Translations under genes and position numbers: made by a program
Shown: one piece after another, positions 1 through 24,781 of the stretch
Layout: the number at the start of each line of letters is the position of its first letter
Position numbering within the stretch: position 1 is the stretch's first letter
The notes under the pieces: generated by a model
Database searches by the model: none
Told to the model about the DNA's origin: nothing
What the model saw: the letters and a program-made list of their open reading frames with translations, nothing else
Virus record (IMG/VR): IMGVR_UViG_2802429221_000013
Length of the DNA: 31,751 bases
From: a virus
Lineage: Duplodnaviria > Heunggongvirae > Uroviricota > Caudoviricetes
Reading direction: 5' to 3' (one strand)

Positions 1-798
1 TTAGAACATCACTTTATGACCATACTGCTCAAGAATGCCTTTCACGCGCTCCATGGTCTCTTTCTTCGGTGGTTTCACGCCATCGAGTTTGTACTCTTCG
101 CCCATCGCCACCCATTTGTGTTTGCCCAGCTCATGGTAGGGGAGGAGTTCGATTTTTTCGACGTTACCCATATCACGGGTAAATTCACCAAGACGGTGGG
201 CGGAATCGTCGTCGTCAGACCAGCCAGGTACTACGACATAACGGATCCAGACTTTCACATTTTTGTTCGCCAGATATTTGGCAAACTCCAGCGTTCGGTG
301 GTTGGAAACGCCTACCAGATTTTGGTGGATCTCGTCGTTCATTTGTTTGAGATCAAGCATTACCAGGTCGGTTACTTCCAGCAGTTCATCAATCACCGGA
401 TCGTAACGACGAACAAAACCGTTGGTGTCCAGACAGGTATGAATGCCTTCTTTTTTGCAGGCGCGGAACCAGTCACGAACAAACTCAGCTTGCAGAATTG
501 CTTCGCCGCCAGATGCGGTAACGCCGCCACCTGAAGCGTTCATAAAGTGGCGATAGGTCACCACCTCTTTCATTAAATCTTCAACGGTAACTTCTTTACC
601 GCCATGCGTGTCCCAGGTGTCGCGGTTATGACAATACAGGCAGCGCATCAGGCAGCCTTGGAAAAAGGTGATAAAGCGAATACCCGGGCCGTCTACGGTT
701 CCACAGGATTCAAAGGAGTGAATGCGACCAATAACTGACTTGGTAGCCCCCGCCGCAGCGGTATTTTCTGTTGTATTACAATTAGTTAAATTACTCAT
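1..798 (-). CDS. pflA: Pyruvate formate-lyase 1 activating enzyme (radical SAM); host gene flanking the prophage
   Basis: Translation contains the radical-SAM CxxxCxxC motif ([12 protein letters not shown]) and matches PflA along its length from [22 protein letters not shown] onward. The open frame extends 19 codons upstream of the canonical MSVIG start, and the codon at 739-741 reads AAG (Lys), not ATG, so the true start is uncertain. Confidence 0.9.
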
Positions 799-829: not shown

Positions 830-1825
830 TTATGGACGCATTATGGACATTCCTGACACCGGGTTAAGAGTCACAGCATCTTGTAAGAAATCCGGTGCAA
901 AGTGTGCGTAGGTCATAGTTTGCTGAATGTTAGAATGACCCAGGATGCGCTGCAATGTGATTATGTTACCTCCATTCATTATAAAATGTGTGGCAAATGT
1001 ATGCCTCAAAACATGCACTGCCTGTCCGTCAGGTAAATCGGGTTTTACTTCCCTGAGAGCGTTGCGCACTTTGTAGTAACTGGCATTAAAAAGCCTGCCA
1101 GAATTTTTGGTTTTGATCCGTTTAATCAAGTCCTGCGAAACGGGAATTGTCCTGCGCTTTCCGTTTTTGGTTTTCATAAACGTAACCATTTGGTTAATGA
1201 TGTGTTCAGCTTTTAAATTAGACACTTCACTCCAGCGTCCACCAGTAGAAAGGCAGACCAGAGTCGCATTTAATTCATCACCATCAAGCATGGATAGCAG
1301 CCGCGTAATCTCTTCACTGGACAAAAAAGCCATTTCCGTAACAGCTTCACGTAACCGCTTCACCTCACGGAACGGGTTGTGAGAGTGATATTCACCGGCG
1401 TCAATTAACTTGGTGAACATCCCGCTCATTATTGCCAGATGCCGATTTACGCTGGCTGGTTTTAGACCGTCGTTCATCATTACAACGCGATAATCAGTTA
1501 TCGTTTTCTTTGTTAGCTGGTCCGCCCTGGACACTCCCATCTCAGCAAATTTGGCAATTATTGTCGTCAAACGCCCCCGTTCAATATCTCCACGCTCATG
1601 TGATTTTCCGTGATATATCCACCATCTGCCTAACAACTCTGTAAGAGTTCGGCGGTCGGCCGGCTTCTCCAACCACTCTTTGTTGTGGTAGTTAACCAGG
1701 ACATGACGCTCGAATGCCTGGGCTTCACCTTTAGTTTTAAATTTCCGCCTGATACGTTTTCCATCTGCACCCTGCGGCCTGACGTCCACTTCATAACGAC
1801 CATCATCGAGCTTTTTAATAGACAT
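830..1825 (-). CDS. int: Phage integrase, tyrosine recombinase (P2 Int-like)
   Basis: 331-aa ORF with a C-terminal tyrosine-recombinase catalytic region (HVLRHTFATH, LGHSNIQQTMTYAH). Sits at the prophage edge next to C/cox as in P2. Stop codon is only 31 bp from the pflA ORF start. Confidence 0.9.
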   Translation of the reverse strand: MSIKKLDDGRYEVDVRPQGADGKRIRRKFKTKGEAQAFERHVLVNYHNKEWLEKPADRRTLTELLGRWWIYHGKSHERGDIERGRLTTIIAKFAEMGVSRADQLTKKTITDYRVVMMNDGLKPASVNRHLAIMSGMFTKLIDAGEYHSHNPFREVKRLREAVTEMAFLSSEEITRLLSMLDGDELNATLVCLSTGGRWSEVSNLKAEHIINQMVTFMKTKNGKRRTIPVSQDLIKRIKTKNSGRLFNASYYKVRNALREVKPDLPDGQAVHVLRHTFATHFIMNGGNIITLQRILGHSNIQQTMTYAHFAPDFLQDAVTLNPVSGMSIMRP

Positions 1826-1918: not shown

Positions 1919-2218
1919 TCAGCCAGTCTTTTGGTCTGAGTGGTGCAAGGTTGTTGAGTCTTGCCCAATGTGTGCGAGCGCCGGGGCTATTTGTCCGGCA
2001 GCGGGATCTGTCTCATCAAACATGAACCAGTCACGGTATTTTCTGAACCTTTCTACTTTAAAAAACTTCTTAGCATTTTCTAGGGACATCATAGCCTTAC
2101 CTGATTCATAACCTGCATATGTGGTGTAGTTGATGCCAGCTAGTTCAGCTACCTCCTTCATTTTCAGACGTTCAGACTCACGGATAAGCTTCAAACGTTC
2201 GCTAGTGTCAGTTGACAT
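1919..2218 (-). CDS. C: Immunity repressor C (P2 C-like, 99 aa)
   Basis: Using the internal ATG at 2216-2218 gives 99 aa, the P2 C length. C-terminus (GQIAPALAHIGQ...SDQKTG) resembles P2 C as I recall it. Divergent from cox. The longer ORF-track start at 2269 is probably an over-extension. Confidence 0.8.
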   Translation of the reverse strand: MSTDTSERLKLIRESERLKMKEVAELAGINYTTYAGYESGKAMMSLENAKKFFKVERFRKYRDWFMFDETDPAAGQIAPALAHIGQDSTTLHHSDQKTG

Positions 2219-2278
2219 AAATTCTCTAACCTCGTATTCTTTTGCATAGTTGATATGATTTATCAGCATCTAACGACT

Positions 2279-2321: not shown

Positions 2322-2678
2322 ATGAATGTCGGATCTGAAATTTGTGACGAGAAAAGACAAGAAGTTTCTGCTCTTAAAAAAAACAAGCGTGATTCCATTA
2401 AGTTGGCTGCGGATCCGTCAGATTTACTGTCGAAAGAGGGTTTTGCTCTTTACATCGGTAAGACTCCTCGTGCGGTGGCTGAAATGGCACGAGCTGGAAA
2501 GCTGCCAGCATTCTATATGACAGACCCGTTAAAGCCGGGCGGTCACGCTGAGTTATGGATTAATCGTCGTGAGTGGGACAAATATGCAGCTCAACTAGTC
2601 GATGAAGCTCCGACAGAATGGCATGACTGGAAGAACCGCATAAGTTACAGCAAATCCAGACATGGCCACGCGGCCTAA
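2322..2678 (+). CDS. cox: Cox-like excisionase / early-operon regulator
   Basis: First gene of the rightward early operon, divergent from C. Contains a GKLP...MTDP motif similar to P2 Cox. GAGGA ribosome-binding site upstream. At 118 aa it is longer than P2 Cox (91 aa), so the N-terminus is uncertain. Confidence 0.7.
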   Translation: MNVGSEICDEKRQEVSALKKNKRDSIKLAADPSDLLSKEGFALYIGKTPRAVAEMARAGKLPAFYMTDPLKPGGHAELWINRREWDKYAAQLVDEAPTEWHDWKNRISYSKSRHGHAA

Positions 2679-2687
2679 GGAGGAGCC

Positions 2688-3152
2688 ATGAGGCAAGATT
2701 TAAATAAAACATCGGTGACTATCATCAGAGGAAACCTTGAAGATGCATCACCATCTAACAGCCTGACTATTACGTATAGTGAGTTTGCTAATAGTACGAA
2801 AGAATATAAATCAGCCGATGAATTGAGAAAACAAAATATCATTTTGGATAATGATGAACTTGTTTTTATTAGTTCAGATGGTGATGAAGAAATTCTACGG
2901 CTGAATTTGAAATCTTTATTTCATGACTCTTTTTTGCGCATTAAATATGAATGCGTTGGTATGACCGTTCAAGAGCGCATGGAACTCGCTAAGGCTCTTC
3001 GTGAAACGATAATTTCTAAATCAGGCGATATAAATAGTATTAAATGGTCAATAGGGCTTGATGACTGGAAAAGTATTTTTGACATGATGACGCATCCGTA
3101 TAAACAGCATACGGATGCAAGATGCTATTTTAAAAATGATTTATATCAATAA
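2688..3152 (+). CDS. Hypothetical protein, AT-rich cargo ORF in the early operon
   Basis: 154-aa ORF with a strong ribosome-binding site (AAGGAGG, 4-5 nt before the ATG), starting 10 bp after the cox stop. AT-rich compared with flanking phage genes. No motif I recognise. Confidence 0.6.
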   Translation: MRQDLNKTSVTIIRGNLEDASPSNSLTITYSEFANSTKEYKSADELRKQNIILDNDELVFISSDGDEEILRLNLKSLFHDSFLRIKYECVGMTVQERMELAKALRETIISKSGDINSIKWSIGLDDWKSIFDMMTHPYKQHTDARCYFKNDLYQ

Positions 3153-3324
3153 AGCCTTTGAGTTGGACTGGCTTTTTAGGGTGAATGATCTCTCTTAATT
3201 GAATAGTTAATTCATCCACTTTTTTAGCGTCCTCAAAATCTCCCATTGGAGTTGGTAGGGTATTTGCTAATGCAACCGCTTTTTCGAGAGTGGTTATAAG
3301 TTCGTCAATATTTTGATTATTCAT
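3130..3324 (-). CDS. Hypothetical small protein, convergent with and overlapping the 3' end of the 154-aa ORF
   Basis: 64-aa ORF with a GAGGT ribosome-binding site 5 nt upstream of its ATG (minus strand). AT-rich. Its last 23 nt overlap the 3' end of the plus-strand ORF. Confidence 0.45.
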   Translation of the reverse strand: MNNQNIDELITTLEKAVALANTLPTPMGDFEDAKKVDELTIQLREIIHPKKPVQLKGFIDINHF

Positions 3325-3424
3325 TTATTACCTCGCTTGTGGTTGGTTGTTTTTGGCGATTCGATCTTACCACAAGACCATGTGCCGGACATGGCTAAAA
3401 ACCGGCTCTGTTTCAGGAGGAGTT

Positions 3425-3595
3425 ATGCAGGAACCTCGTTGTATTGCTCAGTTATTGCGTAACGAAAGCCCTAGGGCGATTGACTTCACCATCACCCACG
3501 GGAAAGGACGCAAGGGAATCATTATCCGCACCAAAAAACAGAGTTCGTTAAAGAAGGCTCTGACCTTTCTGAAAAGCCGGAGGGTCTGGAAATGA
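3425..3595 (+). CDS. Small early protein, hypothetical
   Basis: The internal ATG at 3425 is preceded by AGGAGG, giving 56 aa. Basic protein. Its stop overlaps the B start (ATGA). Confidence 0.5.
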   Translation: MQEPRCIAQLLRNESPRAIDFTITHGKGRKGIIIRTKKQSSLKKALTFLKSRRVWK

Positions 3596-4092
3596 CAGTG
3601 ATGACGCTTAATCTCGTTGAAAAACAGCCAGCAGCTATGCGCCGGATAATTGGTAAGCATCTGGCCGTCCCTCGCTGGCAGGATACATGTGATTATTATA
3701 ATCAGATGATGGAACGCGAACGGCTAACGGTTTGCTTTCATGCGCAGTTAAAACAGCGTCACGCAACGATGCGTTTTGAAGAAATGAACGACGTCGAACG
3801 TGAACGGCTGGTTTGTGCAATTGATGAATTGCGCGGGGCATTCTCAAAACGCCGTCAGGTTGGCGCAAGTGAGTATGCATATATTAGTTTTTTAACAGTC
3901 AGTCAGCGTCGCACTTTATTTATGCACGCACGGCTGACAGAAAAAGAATTTAACCAGCCATACTGGCGAATTAATGAAGAGTCATGTTACTGGCGTGATG
4001 CTTTATTCCGTGCATTACGTGAATTATTCAGTCTGTTTGAGTATGCACCGACAATTCTGACGTCGGTAAAACCAGAGCAATATCTGCATTAA
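3592..4092 (+). CDS. B: Replication protein B (helicase-loader-like, P2 gpB)
   Basis: 166 aa, the same length as P2 gpB, in the same position between cox and A. Confidence 0.8.
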   Translation: MTVMTLNLVEKQPAAMRRIIGKHLAVPRWQDTCDYYNQMMERERLTVCFHAQLKQRHATMRFEEMNDVERERLVCAIDELRGAFSKRRQVGASEYAYISFLTVSQRRTLFMHARLTEKEFNQPYWRINEESCYWRDALFRALRELFSLFEYAPTILTSVKPEQYLH

Positions 4093-4376: not shown

Positions 4377-4628
4377 TTGGAAATGACAAATACAAAATGG
4401 TTCAGGAAACGCTTAACAGATTATCAACTTTCATTACTTAAAAAATTAGATGACAAGACTCCACTACATCCTTCAAGCGATGTCTTCCGCTCCTGGCCTA
4501 GCCGTGTGGAAAAAACATTTATAGCAATGGGGAAATGGGGACTTGTGACCAAATCAAGAGAAGGTTTCTGTATTACCGATAATGGCCGGGAAATGATTGA
4601 TTCTGCGGAGAGGGCATACAGCGAATGA
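4377..4628 (+). CDS. Hypothetical early protein
   Basis: 83-aa ORF, closely spaced with neighbours in the early operon. Confidence 0.5.
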   Translation: MEMTNTKWFRKRLTDYQLSLLKKLDDKTPLHPSSDVFRSWPSRVEKTFIAMGKWGLVTKSREGFCITDNGREMIDSAERAYSE

Positions 4629-5139: not shown

Positions 5140-5411
5140 GTATTCGTATTGAAATTGGCGAACGTTATGTCGTTACCAGTGACAGCTTTCAGTTTATTCT
5201 CCACGAGAAAAAGAGAGCGGAAAGCGGTAAAAACGCCGGTCAGGAATGGCTGGCGGTGGTTGGTTATTACCCGAAATTAAGCCAGCTCGTTTCCGGCCTG
5301 ATGCATCACGATATTCTGACCGGAAGCGCAAAGTCTTTTGCCGATTTAAACGCGCAGGTTGAGCAACTCAGCAGGCGTTGTTCAGAGGCTTTTGGCTCAT
5401 ATGGCCGTTAA
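5136..5411 (+). CDS. Hypothetical early protein
   Basis: 91-aa ORF translationally coupled to its neighbours; its 3' end overlaps the A start. Confidence 0.5.
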   Translation: MSIRIEIGERYVVTSDSFQFILHEKKRAESGKNAGQEWLAVVGYYPKLSQLVSGLMHHDILTGSAKSFADLNAQVEQLSRRCSEAFGSYGR

Positions 5412-7674
5412 AGCCTCCGGGCGTTTTGTCCCTCCGTCAGCATTTGCTGCAGGCACCGGTAAGGCGTTTACCGGTGCTTATGCATGGAACGCGCCACGCG
5501 AGGCTGTCGGGCGCGAAAGACCCCTTACACGTGACGAGATGCGTCAGGTGCAAGGTGTTTTATCCACGATTAACCGTCTGCCTTACTTTTTGCGCTCGCT
5601 GTTTACTTCACGTTATGACTACATCCGGCGCAATAAAAGCCCGGTGCACGGGTTTTATTTCCTCACATCCACTTTTCAGCGTCGTTTATGGCCGCGCATT
5701 GAGCGCGTGAATCAGCGCCATGAAATGAACACCGACGCGTCGTTGCTGTTTCTGGCAGAGCGTGACCATTATGCGCGCCTGCCTGGAATGAATGACAAGG
5801 AGCTGAAAAAGTTTGCCGCCCGTATCTCATCGCAGCTTTTCATGATGTATGAGGAACTCAGCGATGCCTGGGTGGATGCGCATGGCGAAAAAGAATCGCT
5901 GTTTACGGATGAGGCGCAGGCTCACCTGTATGGTCATGTTGCTGGCGCTGCACGTGCTTTCAATATTTCCCCGCTCTACTGGAAAAAATACCGTAAAGGA
6001 CAGATGACCACGAGGCAGGCATATTCTGCCATTGCCCGCCTGTTTAACGATGAGTGGTGGACTCATCAGCTTAAAGGCCAGCGTATGCGCTGGCATGAGG
6101 CGTTACTGATTGCTGTAGGGGAGGTCAATAAAGACCGTTCTCCTTATGCCAGTAAACACGCCATTCGTGATGTGCGTGCACGCCGCCAGGCAAATCTGGA
6201 ATTTCTTAAATCGTGTGACCTCGAAAACAGGGAAACCGGCGAGCGCATCGACCTTATCAGTAAGGTGATGGGCAGTATTTCTAATCCTGAAATTCGTCGG
6301 ATGGAGTTGATGAACACCATTGCCGGTATTGAGCGTTACGCCGCCGCAGAGGGCGATGTGGGGATGTTTATCACGCTGACCGCGCCGTCAAAGTATCACC
6401 CGACACGTCAGGTCGGAAAAGGCGAAAGTAAAACCGTCCAGCTAAATCACGGCTGGAACGATGAGGCATTTAATCCAAAGGATGCGCAGCGTTATCTCTG
6501 CCATATCTGGAGCCTGATGCGCACGGCATTCAAAGATAATGATTTACAGGTCTACGGTTTGCGTGTCGTCGAGCCACACCACGACGGAACGCCGCACTGG
6601 CATATGATGCTTTTTTGTCATCCACGCCAGCGTAACCAGATTATCGAAATCATGCGTCGCTATGCGCTCAAAGAGGATGGCGACGAAAGAGGAGCCGCGC
6701 GAAACCGTTTTCAGGCAAAACACCTTAACCGGGGCGGTGCTGCGGGATATATCGCGAAATACATTTCAAAAAACATCGACGGCTATGCACTGGATGGTCA
6801 GCTCGATAACGATACCGGCAGGCCGCTGAAAGACACTGCCGCGGCTGTTACCGCATGGGCGTCAACGTGGCGTATTCCGCAATTTAAAACTGTTGGCCTG
6901 CCGACAATGGGGGCTTACCGTGAACTACGCAAATTACCTCGCGGCGTCAGCATTGCTGATGAGTTTGACGAACGCGTCGAGGCTGCACGCGCTGCCGCAG
7001 ACAGTGGCGATTTTGCGCTGTATATCAGCGCGCAGGGTGGGGCAAATGTCCCGCGCGATTGTCAGACTGTCAGGGTCGCCCGTAGTCCGTCGGATGACGT
7101 TAACGAGTACGAGGAAGAAGTCGAGAGAGTGGTCGGCATTTACGCGCCGCATCTCGGCGCGCGTCATATTCATATCACCAGAACCACGGACTGGCGCATT
7201 GTGCCGAAAGTTCCTGTCGTTGAGCCTTTGACTTTAAAAAGCGGCATCGCCGCGCCTCGGAGTCCTGTCAATAACTGTGGAAAGCTCAACGGTGGTGATA
7301 CTTCGTTACCGGCTCCCACACCTTCTGAGCACGCCGCAGCAGTGCTAAATCTGGTTGATGACGGTGTTATCGAATGGAATGACCCGGAGGTCGTGAGGGC
7401 GCTCAGGGGCGCATTAAAACACGGTCTGAAAACACCAAATCGTCAGCAAAGAAACGGAAGTCCGTTAAAAACACATGAAATTGCATCGTCGGCCAGACTG
7501 ACCCGGTCGGAACGAATGCAAATCACCCGTATCCGCGTTGACCTTGCTCAGAACGGTATCAGGCCTCAGCGATGGGAGCTTGAGGCGCTGGCGCGTGGGG
7601 CTGCGGTGATTTACGGTAACAAAAAGTTCATTTATGCGACCGATAAGGGATGGCCAGGGTTTTCTGAGGGGTAA
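5401..7674 (+). CDS. A: Replication initiation endonuclease A (rolling-circle initiator, P2 gpA)
   Basis: From the ATG at 5401 the product is 757 aa (P2 gpA is about 761) and begins MAVKASGRFVPPSAFAAGTGK as I recall P2 gpA does. Contains the rolling-circle initiator HxH motif (PHWHMMLF) and a candidate catalytic tyrosine region (YIAKYISK). Confidence 0.9.
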   Translation: MAVKASGRFVPPSAFAAGTGKAFTGAYAWNAPREAVGRERPLTRDEMRQVQGVLSTINRLPYFLRSLFTSRYDYIRRNKSPVHGFYFLTSTFQRRLWPRIERVNQRHEMNTDASLLFLAERDHYARLPGMNDKELKKFAARISSQLFMMYEELSDAWVDAHGEKESLFTDEAQAHLYGHVAGAARAFNISPLYWKKYRKGQMTTRQAYSAIARLFNDEWWTHQLKGQRMRWHEALLIAVGEVNKDRSPYASKHAIRDVRARRQANLEFLKSCDLENRETGERIDLISKVMGSISNPEIRRMELMNTIAGIERYAAAEGDVGMFITLTAPSKYHPTRQVGKGESKTVQLNHGWNDEAFNPKDAQRYLCHIWSLMRTAFKDNDLQVYGLRVVEPHHDGTPHWHMMLFCHPRQRNQIIEIMRRYALKEDGDERGAARNRFQAKHLNRGGAAGYIAKYISKNIDGYALDGQLDNDTGRPLKDTAAAVTAWASTWRIPQFKTVGLPTMGAYRELRKLPRGVSIADEFDERVEAARAAADSGDFALYISAQGGANVPRDCQTVRVARSPSDDVNEYEEEVERVVGIYAPHLGARHIHITRTTDWRIVPKVPVVEPLTLKSGIAAPRSPVNNCGKLNGGDTSLPAPTPSEHAAAVLNLVDDGVIEWNDPEVVRALRGALKHGLKTPNRQQRNGSPLKTHEIASSARLTRSERMQITRIRVDLAQNGIRPQRWELEALARGAAVIYGNKKFIYATDKGWPGFSEG

Positions 7675-7791: not shown

Positions 7792-8694
7792 ATGCGTGAG
7801 GCTGTTTCAATCGCTTGGTGGAATACGGGGATATCTCCTGCGGTTAAAAGAGAACGTTCTACTCCTGAAGAGTTGAAAGTAGCATTTGCTTTTATAGCAA
7901 ATATTTTGGTGAGTCATAATGTTGATATCCTATGTCTTGGAGAAATATCACCATCAGATATTAAGGTTTTAGAGGAAATGTTCTCAGAGGAAGGATTCAT
8001 AATATATGATGGGACTTTCACTGAAGGAAGCATAAAACATGATATGTGCATTCTTATAAAGCTAGCTACTTTCACTTACATTGATAGTAAAAGCATTGTT
8101 GAACAGTCACTGTTAGGAGCGGTAAGAGCCGGGCAAGAAGTTCAGCTCATGCATAATAACAGTGGGGATCATTTTTTTTTCTACATATCGCATTGGCCTA
8201 TGAGAGGTAATGATTCTAATGAAGAAATGCCAAAACGATATGAATTAGGAAAAGCTTTGCGAGGAGCAATCAGTAGATGTATAGAGGAAAAGTCAGGAAA
8301 GTATTTTATTCTTTTAGGTGATTACAATGACGATCCCTTTAATAAATCTCTTACACATGCTTTAGGTGCAACAAGGGATAGAGACTTAGTTGTCAAAAAA
8401 GATACTTTTTTATACAACCCTTTTTGGAATTTCATGGGGGCTTCAATTAGTTTTCCATCAGAAGATCATCATTTGAGTACCTACGGGACATATTATTACA
8501 GGGGCGGTGCTGTAACCCGTTGGCATACATTTGATCAAATTATTTTCTCCTCTTCATTCATTTCTGGTGGAGATTGGAATCTTTTGGAGGATGAGGTTAA
8601 AATCATTAACGATAAAGCCTTTAAAGAATTGGTGACAAGTCCCAAAACTAACTTTGATCATTTACCTGTTATCGCTGTAATTACGAGAGGTTAA
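7792..8694 (+). CDS. EEP-superfamily (endonuclease/exonuclease/phosphatase) protein; candidate defence effector
   Basis: 300-aa ORF, AT-rich. Motifs matching EEP catalytic signatures: WWN (N11), DILCLGE (E51), LLGDYNDDP (D177, N179), WHTFDQIIFS (D248), NFDHLPV (D289, H290). Sits in the A-to-cos slot where P2 has tin/old. Confidence 0.65.
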   Translation: MREAVSIAWWNTGISPAVKRERSTPEELKVAFAFIANILVSHNVDILCLGEISPSDIKVLEEMFSEEGFIIYDGTFTEGSIKHDMCILIKLATFTYIDSKSIVEQSLLGAVRAGQEVQLMHNNSGDHFFFYISHWPMRGNDSNEEMPKRYELGKALRGAISRCIEEKSGKYFILLGDYNDDPFNKSLTHALGATRDRDLVVKKDTFLYNPFWNFMGASISFPSEDHHLSTYGTYYYRGGAVTRWHTFDQIIFSSSFISGGDWNLLEDEVKIINDKAFKELVTSPKTNFDHLPVIAVITRG

Positions 8695-8698
8695 CAAA

Positions 8699-9151
8699 AT
8701 GGATTTCAAAAATTCATTAGCTGTGGGGATAGAGGCAGCAAAAAAAGCAAGATCAAATAAAGAAGAAATATTTAGTATTATCAGTGATTTAAGTGATAGT
8801 ATAAAGGAGTATAGTCAAGGGCGAGTGTTTTTGAAAATTACGAGTGAAAAAAAACTTGCATCTAATCAGACAGCGCTTACTGCCGTTGTGAGTTCGTTTA
8901 CAAACATCAACCCTTACATCGATTACGAAGCTCTATCGTTCGTAACTAAGAGAGAGCAAACAGAAGTTAAAGAGAACATTGCTGTTTGGAAGATAAATGA
9001 ATCAGATGGTTATCCATGTGTGATTTCTTATAACAAACGGGATGTTAGGTGCAAAGATAAAGAAACGTTAATCAAAGCGTTAAATGATCTAATGTCTGAT
9101 GCTAGCACCGGAGAAATTCTTTTAAGACTTATGAATACAGAGGAAGCATAA
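8699..9151 (+). CDS. Hypothetical protein, partner of the EEP protein
   Basis: 150-aa ORF starting 5 bp after the EEP stop, same AT-rich composition. No motif I recognise. Confidence 0.55.
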   Translation: MDFKNSLAVGIEAAKKARSNKEEIFSIISDLSDSIKEYSQGRVFLKITSEKKLASNQTALTAVVSSFTNINPYIDYEALSFVTKREQTEVKENIAVWKINESDGYPCVISYNKRDVRCKDKETLIKALNDLMSDASTGEILLRLMNTEEA

Positions 9152-23872: not shown

Positions 23873-24280
23873 ATGGCTAAGCGGATTCCTGGTGTTAGTA
23901 AAGAATGGTCTAACTATCTCCTTTGTTTATTATTACATATGTCTTTACCTCTCTTACCTTTGGGGTTCGAGACACTTGTGCGTTCCGATCACTTGCCATC
24001 AATACAAACATTAAATATTACAGCGGCGTTTTATGCGATCTCGATAGGGCTTTCTTCTAAGAACGTTGCTATGTTTGGTTTGGGTATATTCGTGAGCATT
24101 TGTTTCTCTGTTGTATTTGGGATTGTTTCTTCAAATCCTAATTCTGATCCTAATCTTAATTTTAATGATAACTTGTATTTTTATTCTCCAATTGCGTGTA
24201 TTGTTGCTATATTTGTTATACATGCATGTGAACGATATAACAGGCATGTTGCTGATTGTACACCATTTTTTGAGTTTTAA
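23873..24280 (+). CDS. Small polytopic membrane protein, cargo in the G-to-FI slot
   Basis: 135-aa ORF, very AT-rich. Three or four hydrophobic segments (LLCLLLHMSLPLLPLGF, AAFYAISIGL, MFGLGIFVSICFSVVFGIVS, IACIVAIFVIHAC). Weak ribosome-binding site, so the start is uncertain. Confidence 0.5.
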   Translation: MAKRIPGVSKEWSNYLLCLLLHMSLPLLPLGFETLVRSDHLPSIQTLNITAAFYAISIGLSSKNVAMFGLGIFVSICFSVVFGIVSSNPNSDPNLNFNDNLYFYSPIACIVAIFVIHACERYNRHVADCTPFFEF

Positions 24281-24289
24281 GGGGGTGCT

Positions 24290-24781
24290 ATGATTGATAC
24301 AATTATCCCAGTAATACTATCAATTCTCCCGGCAATACTATCTATATTTAGCTTAGTAGCTGTTTTTATAGGTGCATTAGTATCTATCAGGTCTGTTAAA
24401 AAAAGACGTGAAATAGAAGTTCAGCTTTTTAATGAGATAATAAATCAACAAATTAAACAAACTAAAAGCAACCGTAAAAAGGATCTTGAAAATAGTGTTA
24501 ATGAAATAGAAAATGAACTCAAGAGAAGAGTTGATATTTTGAATAAAATGCAAAAAGATCTAGAAGCAGTTTCAGAGAACAAATACTATTTTGATAAAGC
24601 AAAATATCTTCGAAATGTCAAGTATGGAGAGTATTTATTAGAGATAAATGAAGCTGTGAATAATATTGATAATAAAAACAAACACTTACTAAATAACGCT
24701 CTTAATCAAAGCTCTGAGATTGGAAAAGTAAGATATCTTGGAAGAATAACAAAGGAAGCACTGGAAAAAACAGTAGGCTGA
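24290..24781 (+). CDS. Membrane-anchored coiled-coil protein, cargo in the G-to-FI slot
   Basis: 163-aa ORF with a GGGGG ribosome-binding site, 9 bp after the upstream ORF. N-terminal transmembrane helix (IIPVILSILPAILSIFSLVAVFIGALVSI) followed by a highly charged K/E/N-rich helical region. AT-rich. Confidence 0.6.
   Translation: MIDTIIPVILSILPAILSIFSLVAVFIGALVSIRSVKKRREIEVQLFNEIINQQIKQTKSNRKKDLENSVNEIENELKRRVDILNKMQKDLEAVSENKYYFDKAKYLRNVKYGEYLLEINEAVNNIDNKNKHLLNNALNQSSEIGKVRYLGRITKEALEKTVG

Follow-up and report, generated by a model that had tools for sequence, protein, structure and literature searches.

P2-like prophages serve as a model for defence and counter-defence cargo, and attention has so far been given to two or three of their hotspots. 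The described P2 hotspots lie between gpA and the portal gene (old/tin), at Z/fun in the tail region, and between the tail genes and CI (PMC9122126; bioRxiv 10.1101/2024.10.15.618418). About half of the P2 elements carry recognisable systems at these classical sites (PMC13586616). The present analysis concerns a further site, located in the essential early operon of a P2-like prophage. The DNA is a stretch of 31,751 nucleotides (nt) from IMG/VR virus record IMGVR_UViG_2802429221_000013 (Caudoviricetes), which is referred to as the window. Between cox and the small backbone gene orf78, the window carries an AT-rich cassette composed of a rightward gene (gene A), a leftward gene (gene B) that converges on it, and a structured, promoter-like element on the right; one such element is found to serve at least 16 unrelated small leftward families without a known domain. 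The reading that we favour, with a little more confidence than doubt, is that of a horizontally exchanged accessory cassette of the moron type in a rarely filled two-slot site of the early operon, in which A and B are expressed reciprocally.

Comparison with relatives identifies the cassette as an insertion. In a P2-like phage whose cox is of the same type, the ATG of orf78 is situated 12 nt past the cox stop. In the window, gene A occupies the position of the orf78 start and orf78 resumes about 737 bases later, and the junctions of the insert fall exactly at the cox stop and at the Shine-Dalgarno (SD) sequence of orf78. The GC fraction is 0.33-0.365 over positions 2701-3300, as against about 0.49-0.51 in cox and in orf78 and replication gene B. 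Direct adjacency of cox and orf78 is the common state, being observed in 76 of the 88 sampled loci that have orf78. A P2-like flank is present in 1670 of 5426 complete E. coli genomes, this cassette in 4 of the 5426, and a 59-nt right-hand junction sequence common to all cassette types in 60; the site is occupied in about 3.6% of the E. coli genomes with a P2-like flank. An earlier sequence-only reading of this DNA had suggested an AT-rich insertion between cox and the small open reading frame (ORF) next to replication gene B, possibly a third cargo site in the early operon, and both suggestions are borne out by the base composition and by these comparisons. The interval is variable cargo and not conserved backbone, since it is present or absent among loci and among E. 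coli genomes.

The cox-orf78 site resembles the P2 hotspots and morons in the presence, absence and replacement of genes between collinear phages, in deviant, low GC content, and in conserved core genes on both flanks. It differs from them in being located inside an essential operon, in its low occupancy, in a fixed tail-to-tail layout of two slots with one conserved element common to unrelated cargo, and in cargo that is wholly unrecognised. No description of a cassette site between cox and orf78, of the A and B proteins or of the shared element was found in the literature, nor any for the RefSeq accessions.

The two ORFs named by the sequence-only reading, 154 aa behind a strong AAGGAGG on the plus strand and 64 aa behind GAGGT on the minus strand, are confirmed by their coordinates. 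Gene A starts at 2688, which is 9 nt past the cox stop (2676-2678) and 4 nt past AAGGAGG. Relatives were sought by a word-indexed search, then by an exhaustive HMMER scan of 1.84 billion representatives, and then by a profile search. The word-indexed searches returned near-identical copies only, and the HMMER scan yielded two true relatives of gene A with 44% and 34% identity; another hit of the exhaustive search, P0005, was discarded as a spurious match to a low-complexity repeat. The profile search extended the family to about 20 clusters of 32-44% identity from E. coli, Citrobacter, Kluyvera, Salmonella and Yersinia ruckeri. The A family is confined to P2-like prophages. In each of the ten unfused A clusters that were read, A is situated between cox and orf78/B, with differing integrases, cox types and attachment sites. 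In all ten, a B homologue of 62-64 aa, which aligns over its whole length with 47-68% identity, lies tail to tail with A. Homologues of both genes occur in P2-like prophages of Citrobacter, Salmonella, Yersinia, Kluyvera and others.

On this comparative evidence, A and B are both real genes under purifying selection, because their frames are conserved across genera and the ratio of non-synonymous to synonymous substitution rates (dN/dS, Nei-Gojobori) is well below 1. The ratio is 0.08-0.49 for A and 0.07-0.28 for B, or about 0.2 and about 0.1, respectively, where dS is below about 1.1; B is, by these ratios, better conserved than A. The possibility raised at the outset, that the 64-aa ORF lacks coding conservation, is contradicted by these values. 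The lack of database families and the low confidence of the structure models could suggest that one or both ORFs are non-functional, either chance ORFs or decaying remnants in AT-rich junk. We regard this as hardly tenable: intact frames with conserved starts and SD sequences in more than 10 diverged lineages, together with the low dN/dS, effectively refute it.

Both proteins remain unrecognised, as the sequence-only reading had stated. Neither A nor B has a match in Pfam, PHROGs, PADLOC or NCBIfam, and sequence searches of the PDB with the single sequences and with the A profile gave noise only. A tblastn search of both against 50,697 phage records and 72,556 plasmids gave no match, and RefSeq calls them “hypothetical proteins” in near-identical E. 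coli prophages. The A protein is predicted to be soluble and mildly acidic, its N-terminal half being rich in beta structure and its C-terminal half helical. AlphaFold2 models of A reached a predicted local distance difference test score (pLDDT) of 39 for the single sequence and 50 with a 20-sequence alignment, too weak for fold comparison, and the best E-value of 0.65 in a Foldseek comparison of such a low-confidence model with the PDB is uninformative. A similarity between the C-terminal half of A and a repeat protein of the helicase-associated type (HA, PF03457), with an E-value of 4.6e-7, was rejected at an hhalign probability of 4.9%. The B protein is predicted to be a soluble protein of two helices with a conserved C-terminal FIDIN tail (isoelectric point 5.1; grand average of hydropathy, GRAVY, -0.28).

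The site holds other cassettes of the same design. Relatives that share the attachment site of this prophage have other convergent pairs. A type II pair, consisting of a 62-aa rightward and a 58-aa leftward gene, is found for example in the cultured Yersinia phages vB_YpM_115 and vB_YpM_117 as well as in E. coli Trh52, and a type III pair consists of a 198-aa rightward and a 68-aa leftward gene (e.g. in E. coli 90-3040). A census of genomes, viral contigs and metagenomes gave 49 distinct leftward proteins, which fall into 16 families, and 56 rightward partners, which form 14 clusters. We also note that an 88-kb record of E. coli TUM11352 classed as a plasmid (NZ_CP134387.1) contains a P2-like early region with a type III cassette at about 39.4-41.1 kb, and that this strain carries a chromosomal copy as well. 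A fusion variant of gene A (clusters P0017 and P0020; L135, 3001-3651) has an extra C-terminal domain of about 75 aa with the pattern ...GDLxFxSGxE...FYGRSYYANGRK.GVVFYGLS.... A similar domain ends the type III rightward proteins (L003, 1989-2585; L129 and L133), and in both L135 and L003 the small leftward gene is of type III. This suggests domain-level shuffling inside the rightward slot.

What all cassettes have in common is an element of about 80 nt on the right of the leftward cargo gene, located at 3336-3414 in the window and also seen in loci L107-L134, L142, L143 and L176-L215. Across genera it is better conserved than the adjoining coding sequence. The element was sought by its core CCATGYGYCGRNCATGGNTAAAA in one genome per species plus a metagenome collection. 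Prophages of the P2-like and 186-like kinds that carry it came from Pectobacterium, Serratia, Xenorhabdus, Pantoea, Erwinia, Brenneria, Kosakonia, Hafnia, Yersinia, Sodalis and others. Of the 128 pattern matches examined, 108 have the start of a leftward gene at a distance of 40-170 nt on the left side of the element. Motif matches in a “Desulfobacteraceae” metagenome-assembled genome (L109 and L118) lie inside an unrelated gene and were dismissed as chance. The element is usually situated between cox and orf78, or between cII and orf78 in 186-like phages; a placement between Pe and cox is seen for the cassette in SEN4 and SEN5 of Salmonella and in prophages of Kosakonia and Trabulsiella. Viable cultured phages, namely vB_YpM_115/117, SEN4/5 and vB_YenM_42.18, carry the element with other cassettes. 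The wider finding of this comparison is a conserved, putative promoter/RNA element that marks a cargo site with two slots in tail-to-tail layout, rich in small genes that are unrecognised.

In SEN5 (L142, 1255-2050), the Pe/Pc switch is separated from cox by a convergent pair of a 158-aa rightward and a 60-aa leftward gene together with the element, and the same layout is found in SEN4. The first early gene of these two phages is thereby a cargo gene, and cox is transcribed only once early transcription has passed through the leftward gene. A first impression of a 158-aa cargo protein with two transmembrane segments as SLATT-like was not confirmed.

On the minus strand, the consensus of the element reads GCCGGGTTTTAGCCATGCCCGGCGCATGG-TNT-TGTGGTAnnnT. 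Of 33 distinct versions of the element, 32 carry the motif TRTGnTAnnnT, with 12 different hexamers that are all TAnnnT, and the motif begins 5 nt past the palindrome described below in 29 of the 32 and 4-7 nt past it in the rest. We read it as a candidate extended -10 promoter of the sigma-70 type, because just the sigma-70 contact positions are conserved. The predicted transcript of gene B would start at about 3357 with a 5' untranslated region (UTR) of about 33 nt. At the position of the -35 sequence stands a palindrome with the core CCATG-N7-CATGG, whose two halves are invariant in 26 aligned elements from many genera, this core being fixed by the search pattern. A hairpin overlaps the palindrome, and its 5-bp stem is paired in all 24 distinct versions. 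Compensatory double changes have arisen in the stem twice independently, as GCCGA/TCGGC and as GTCGG/CCGAC, and two stem intermediates are G.U pairs on the plus strand only. An outer stem that encloses the 5' UTR of B and the -10 sequence is kept in most of the 33 versions, while the inner sequences differ by lineage and usually form a hairpin of their own. The folding energy summed over the 33 versions is -604 kcal/mol for the plus strand, compared with -521 kcal/mol for the minus strand.

From this pattern of conservation we infer a leftward promoter of the cargo gene within the element, plus a second function that is exercised either by a plus-strand RNA structure or by the binding of a protein. 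No Rfam family matched the element. An interpretation of TGGC-N8-GGCA as a sigma-54 site was rejected, as the spacing varies with the length of the hairpin loop. A rightward promoter in the element was likewise rejected, since there is no acceptable -35/-10 pair and the position is too close to the start of orf78.

The occupants of the two slots are found in varying combinations. Opposite the B family, an unrelated rightward gene of 79 aa is seen in Huaxiibacter and in 16 loci of IMG/VR, the probability of a relationship between this gene and A being 0.2% by hhalign. At least four different rightward genes are found opposite the type II leftward family, and three different leftward genes opposite type III-like rightward ones. 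The slots recombine independently, as the mixing and matching of partners indicates, and A and B are most likely separate cargo and not an obligate pair, because the slots are filled independently.

The exchange of partners bears directly on the idea that A and B are a cognate module in which one protein neutralises the other, either as a toxin-antitoxin (TA)-like pair or as a defence effector with its self-immunity. On this idea, B would be active in the lysogen until A, the first to be made from Pe, turns it off, or the roles would be reversed, and convergent transcription would reinforce the switch. We consider such a module unlikely. B is convergent to A in every unfused context that was read, through differing cox types, integrases and host genera and with a tight CTAG overlap, and the small gene of the fusion variant P0020/L135 is of type III, so that the type of small gene goes along with the 3' domain of its rightward partner. 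Against this stand a whole lineage in which the B family has the unrelated 79-aa partner, other leftward families that have several unrelated rightward partners, as rightward genes in turn have several leftward ones, and the lack of any match to a toxin, antitoxin or defence family in genes that do not form an operon. The A models are also too poor for a test of an interface. A without B is seen just in the fusion variant (P0017 and P0020). Adjacent genes are co-inherited through linkage alone, and the lasting association of A with B can be explained by adjacency. The evidence for a cognate pair is mixed and leans against it.

Convergent transcripts that overlap at their 3' ends are known from type I TA loci such as txpA/RatA and bsrG/SR4. 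The A/B cassette resembles TA loci in having small genes, a convergent 3' overlap (type I) and a two-gene unit in a prophage. It differs from type I loci in that both strands encode conserved, soluble proteins, without a hydrophobic toxin peptide or a non-coding antisense RNA, and a Rfam scan gave nothing near gathering scores. It differs from type II loci in that A and B are convergent in all relatives and not co-transcribed, show neither toxin or antitoxin homology nor a DNA-binding antitoxin domain, and do not co-occur strictly. PADLOC 2.0 assigned neither A nor B to a known anti-phage defence system. The toxin-antitoxin-like module that the sequence-only reading had raised is not supported: there is no TA or defence homology, the genes are convergent and not an operon, and the partners of B are exchangeable.

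Gene A is probably co-transcribed with cox from Pe. It is read as an early-lytic gene because it stands 9 nt behind cox with a strong SD sequence in the Pe operon and a terminator scan found no plus-strand terminator-like site in 2688-3425. No promoter of its own for gene A was found in the window. In P2, cox and replication genes B and A form one operon that is transcribed from Pe. As replication genes B and A are situated downstream of the cassette, the early transcript must cross gene B head-on. The 3' coding ends of A and B overlap by 23 nt, as had been noted. In most relatives, the overlap is 4 nt (CTAG), in one (L095) it is 17 nt, and in the fusion variant there is none. Judged from these relatives, the length of the overlap varies, and the constant feature is an obligatory early transcript that has to run through all of gene B plus the B promoter. 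The proposal of built-in antisense regulation stays plausible in this form, with the early transcript crossing the whole of B, and the 23-nt overlap on which it was based does not hold as its conserved basis.

The mechanism that we propose for the favoured reading assigns one state of the prophage to each slot. Gene A, read rightward behind cox, would be made only when Pe fires, on infection or derepression. Gene B, read leftward from its own extended -10 promoter, could be expressed in the lysogen while C represses Pe. Lytic transcription would switch B off by promoter occlusion or collision, and the early transcript would pair with the B mRNA in an RNA duplex that spans the whole B mRNA, beyond the 23-nt overlap. 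The outcome would be reciprocal, state-specific expression of A and B. The geometry for convergent interference is present, with Pe upstream of cox, the leftward extended -10 at 3364-3374, and essential genes downstream.

Interference between convergent promoters reportedly operates at Pe/Pc of P2 and at pR/pL of 186, in work that is attributed to Callen, Shearwin and Egan and to Saha and Haggard-Ljungquist. The cassette, in the same phage family, resembles these switches in that a strong lytic promoter is directed head-on over a putative, weaker leftward promoter, so that mutually exclusive expression is expected. It differs in that its promoters would be about 1 kb apart, compared with promoters that face each other within 35-62 bp, and would control cargo and not repressors. 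If the reciprocal logic is true, the site offers a simple, testable case of cargo wired into the lysis-lysogeny decision through transcription geometry alone.

A perfect 10-bp inverted repeat lies just past the B stop. In the version of this cassette, it has no T-run on either strand, with a folding z-score of -2.4 (plus) and -2.3 (minus), and this hairpin is all that was found after B in the search for a canonical terminator. It may mark the end of the B transcript or an RNase target.

The conservation of the element and the apparent lack of a leftward stop bring to mind lambda PRE and pE of 186. The functional unit could be the leftward promoter/RNA element and not the proteins, that is, an establishment or insulator promoter whose RNA is antisense to A and cox, may reach C and int, and favours lysogeny or damps the expression of the replication genes from a leaky Pe. 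The cassette shares with PRE and pE a leftward promoter, fitting in position and orientation, that is situated downstream of a cro/apl/cox-type gene, gives antisense RNA, has a poor -35 and is conserved at about -30 to -40. The element always points to the C/int side, whether it is placed after cox, after cII or before cox (SEN5, L131 and L132). The combination of no -35 with an invariant palindrome at about -29 resembles a promoter under the control of an activator or repressor, no minus-strand terminator-like site is predicted from the B stop to C, and the element is conserved far above the adjoining coding sequence across genera. The differences are that conserved protein-coding cargo follows directly after the promoter and that the element is optional in the phage family; to our knowledge, P2-like phages have no CII-type activator, unlike lambda PRE and 186 pE. 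The purifying selection on the leftward cargo ORFs indicates that the proteins matter, and P2 and most of its relatives lysogenise without the element. Untranslated antisense RNA past the B stop is also probably ended by Rho, which counts against its reaching C. All in all, we find it distinctly improbable that the element alone is the functional unit.

Several points weigh against the favoured reading of separate cargo under reciprocal control. The putative B promoter is deduced from conservation and has no -35, and a generic -35/-10 scan missed it. The palindrome, the hairpin and the outer stem are not explained by a promoter, and the element may be mainly a plus-strand RNA or a binding site. 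A and B are found together in every unfused A lineage, and the variant with a swapped C-terminal domain of A also has a swapped small gene; this co-inheritance could reflect functional pairing and not mere linkage. Lastly, any label of “conflict” genes rests on analogy, as none of 24 representative cargo proteins matched Pfam at E <= 0.001, and PADLOC gave no credible defence-family match for A, B, the type II and III pairs and their relatives, or for six other leftward proteins.

As to roles, it is our guess, from position, turnover, small size and analogy with other P2 sites, that B could act in exclusion or defence in the lysogen, and A in early counter-defence or host takeover. A broader version is put forward tentatively. 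A portable element of about 80 nt across P2-like and 186-like phages of the Enterobacterales would define a two-slot site, with leftward conflict or lysogeny-control factors that are expressed in the lysogen and turned off automatically under Pe, rightward early counter-measures, and a plus-strand RNA that keeps the replication genes expressed despite antisense collision. Such a site would be a reservoir of uncharacterised small phage proteins under inbuilt, state-specific control and, if the proposal is true, would provide a defined set to be screened for exclusion, anti-defence and lysogeny control. For the window itself the yield is modest: two real, uncharacterised genes that are rare in E. 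coli.

The window contains a complete P2-like prophage integrated at pflA (1-798, minus strand), and the region is 99.9% identical to prophages of E. coli DAX4, EA2 and A3024. Its features are collected in Table 1. The left flank of the cassette, cox, is the second element of the Pe/Pc switch and the first gene of the early operon, and is labelled “Cox family DNA-binding protein” by RefSeq in an identical prophage. Orthologues of replication gene B are matched by PF26815 Phage_RepB, and the portal, terminase, head and tail genes come after replication gene A.

Table 1. Features of the cassette and its surroundings, in window coordinates (SD, Shine-Dalgarno sequence)
Feature	Position	Strand	Evidence or remarks
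AT-rich cassette (gene A, gene B, promoter/structured element)	2679-3414		missing from P2-like phages with the same cox type
Gene A, 154 aa	2688-3152	+	ORF; SD AAGGAGG at 2677-2683
Gene B, 64 aa	3130-3324	-	ORF; SD GAGGT (ACCTC on the plus strand, 3330-3334)
Overlap of 3' coding ends, 23 nt	3130-3152		ORF coordinates
Perfect 10-bp inverted repeat, GCATCCGTAT N7 ATACGGATGC	3092-3118		repeat search; within 3' end of A, just past B stop
Outer stem, CTTGTGGT / ACCACAAG	3336-3343 with 3369-3376		repeat search; encloses B 5' UTR and -10
Candidate extended -10 promoter of gene B, TGTGGTAAGAT	3364-3374	-	conserved TRTGnTAnnnT
Palindrome, CCATGTGCCGGACATGG (CCATG-N7-CATGG)	3378-3394		about -37 to -21 from putative B promoter, centre about -29, at -35 position
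Hairpin, GCCGG-(ACATGGCTAAAAA)-CCGGC, overlaps palindrome	3384-3406	+	covariation
Integrase	830-1825	-	prophage gene
C-type repressor	1919-2269	-	prophage gene
cox, left flank	2322-2678	+	Pfam Phage_Cox PF10743, E 8.6e-29; phrog_1831, E 1e-60
orf78, right flank, backbone	3425-3595	+	phrog_273, E 6e-40; 527 relatives in IMG/VR
Replication gene B, backbone, downstream of cassette in early operon	3592-4092	+	phrog_235, E 3e-104
Replication gene A	5359-7674	+	small early genes between replication genes B and A

Other parts of the prophage also hold small or unrecognised genes. An 81-aa ORF of the early operon (4383-4628, phrog_11056), located between the DUF2732 and DUF5405 genes, is found in the close relatives L001 and L002, and is absent from L003 and from the P2-like L004, so that a further small slot of variable content may exist here. 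The classical old/tin hotspot between gpA and the portal gene (7792-9151 in this prophage) is AT-rich, with a GC fraction of about 0.36. It encodes a 300-aa protein of the endonuclease/exonuclease/phosphatase family (PF19580, E 1e-16) and a 150-aa protein without a significant family match, and neither of the two matches PADLOC. In the tail-gene region (23873-24781), two ORFs of 135 and 163 aa, which have no significant Pfam match and no PADLOC match, may be cargo at a Z/fun-type site.

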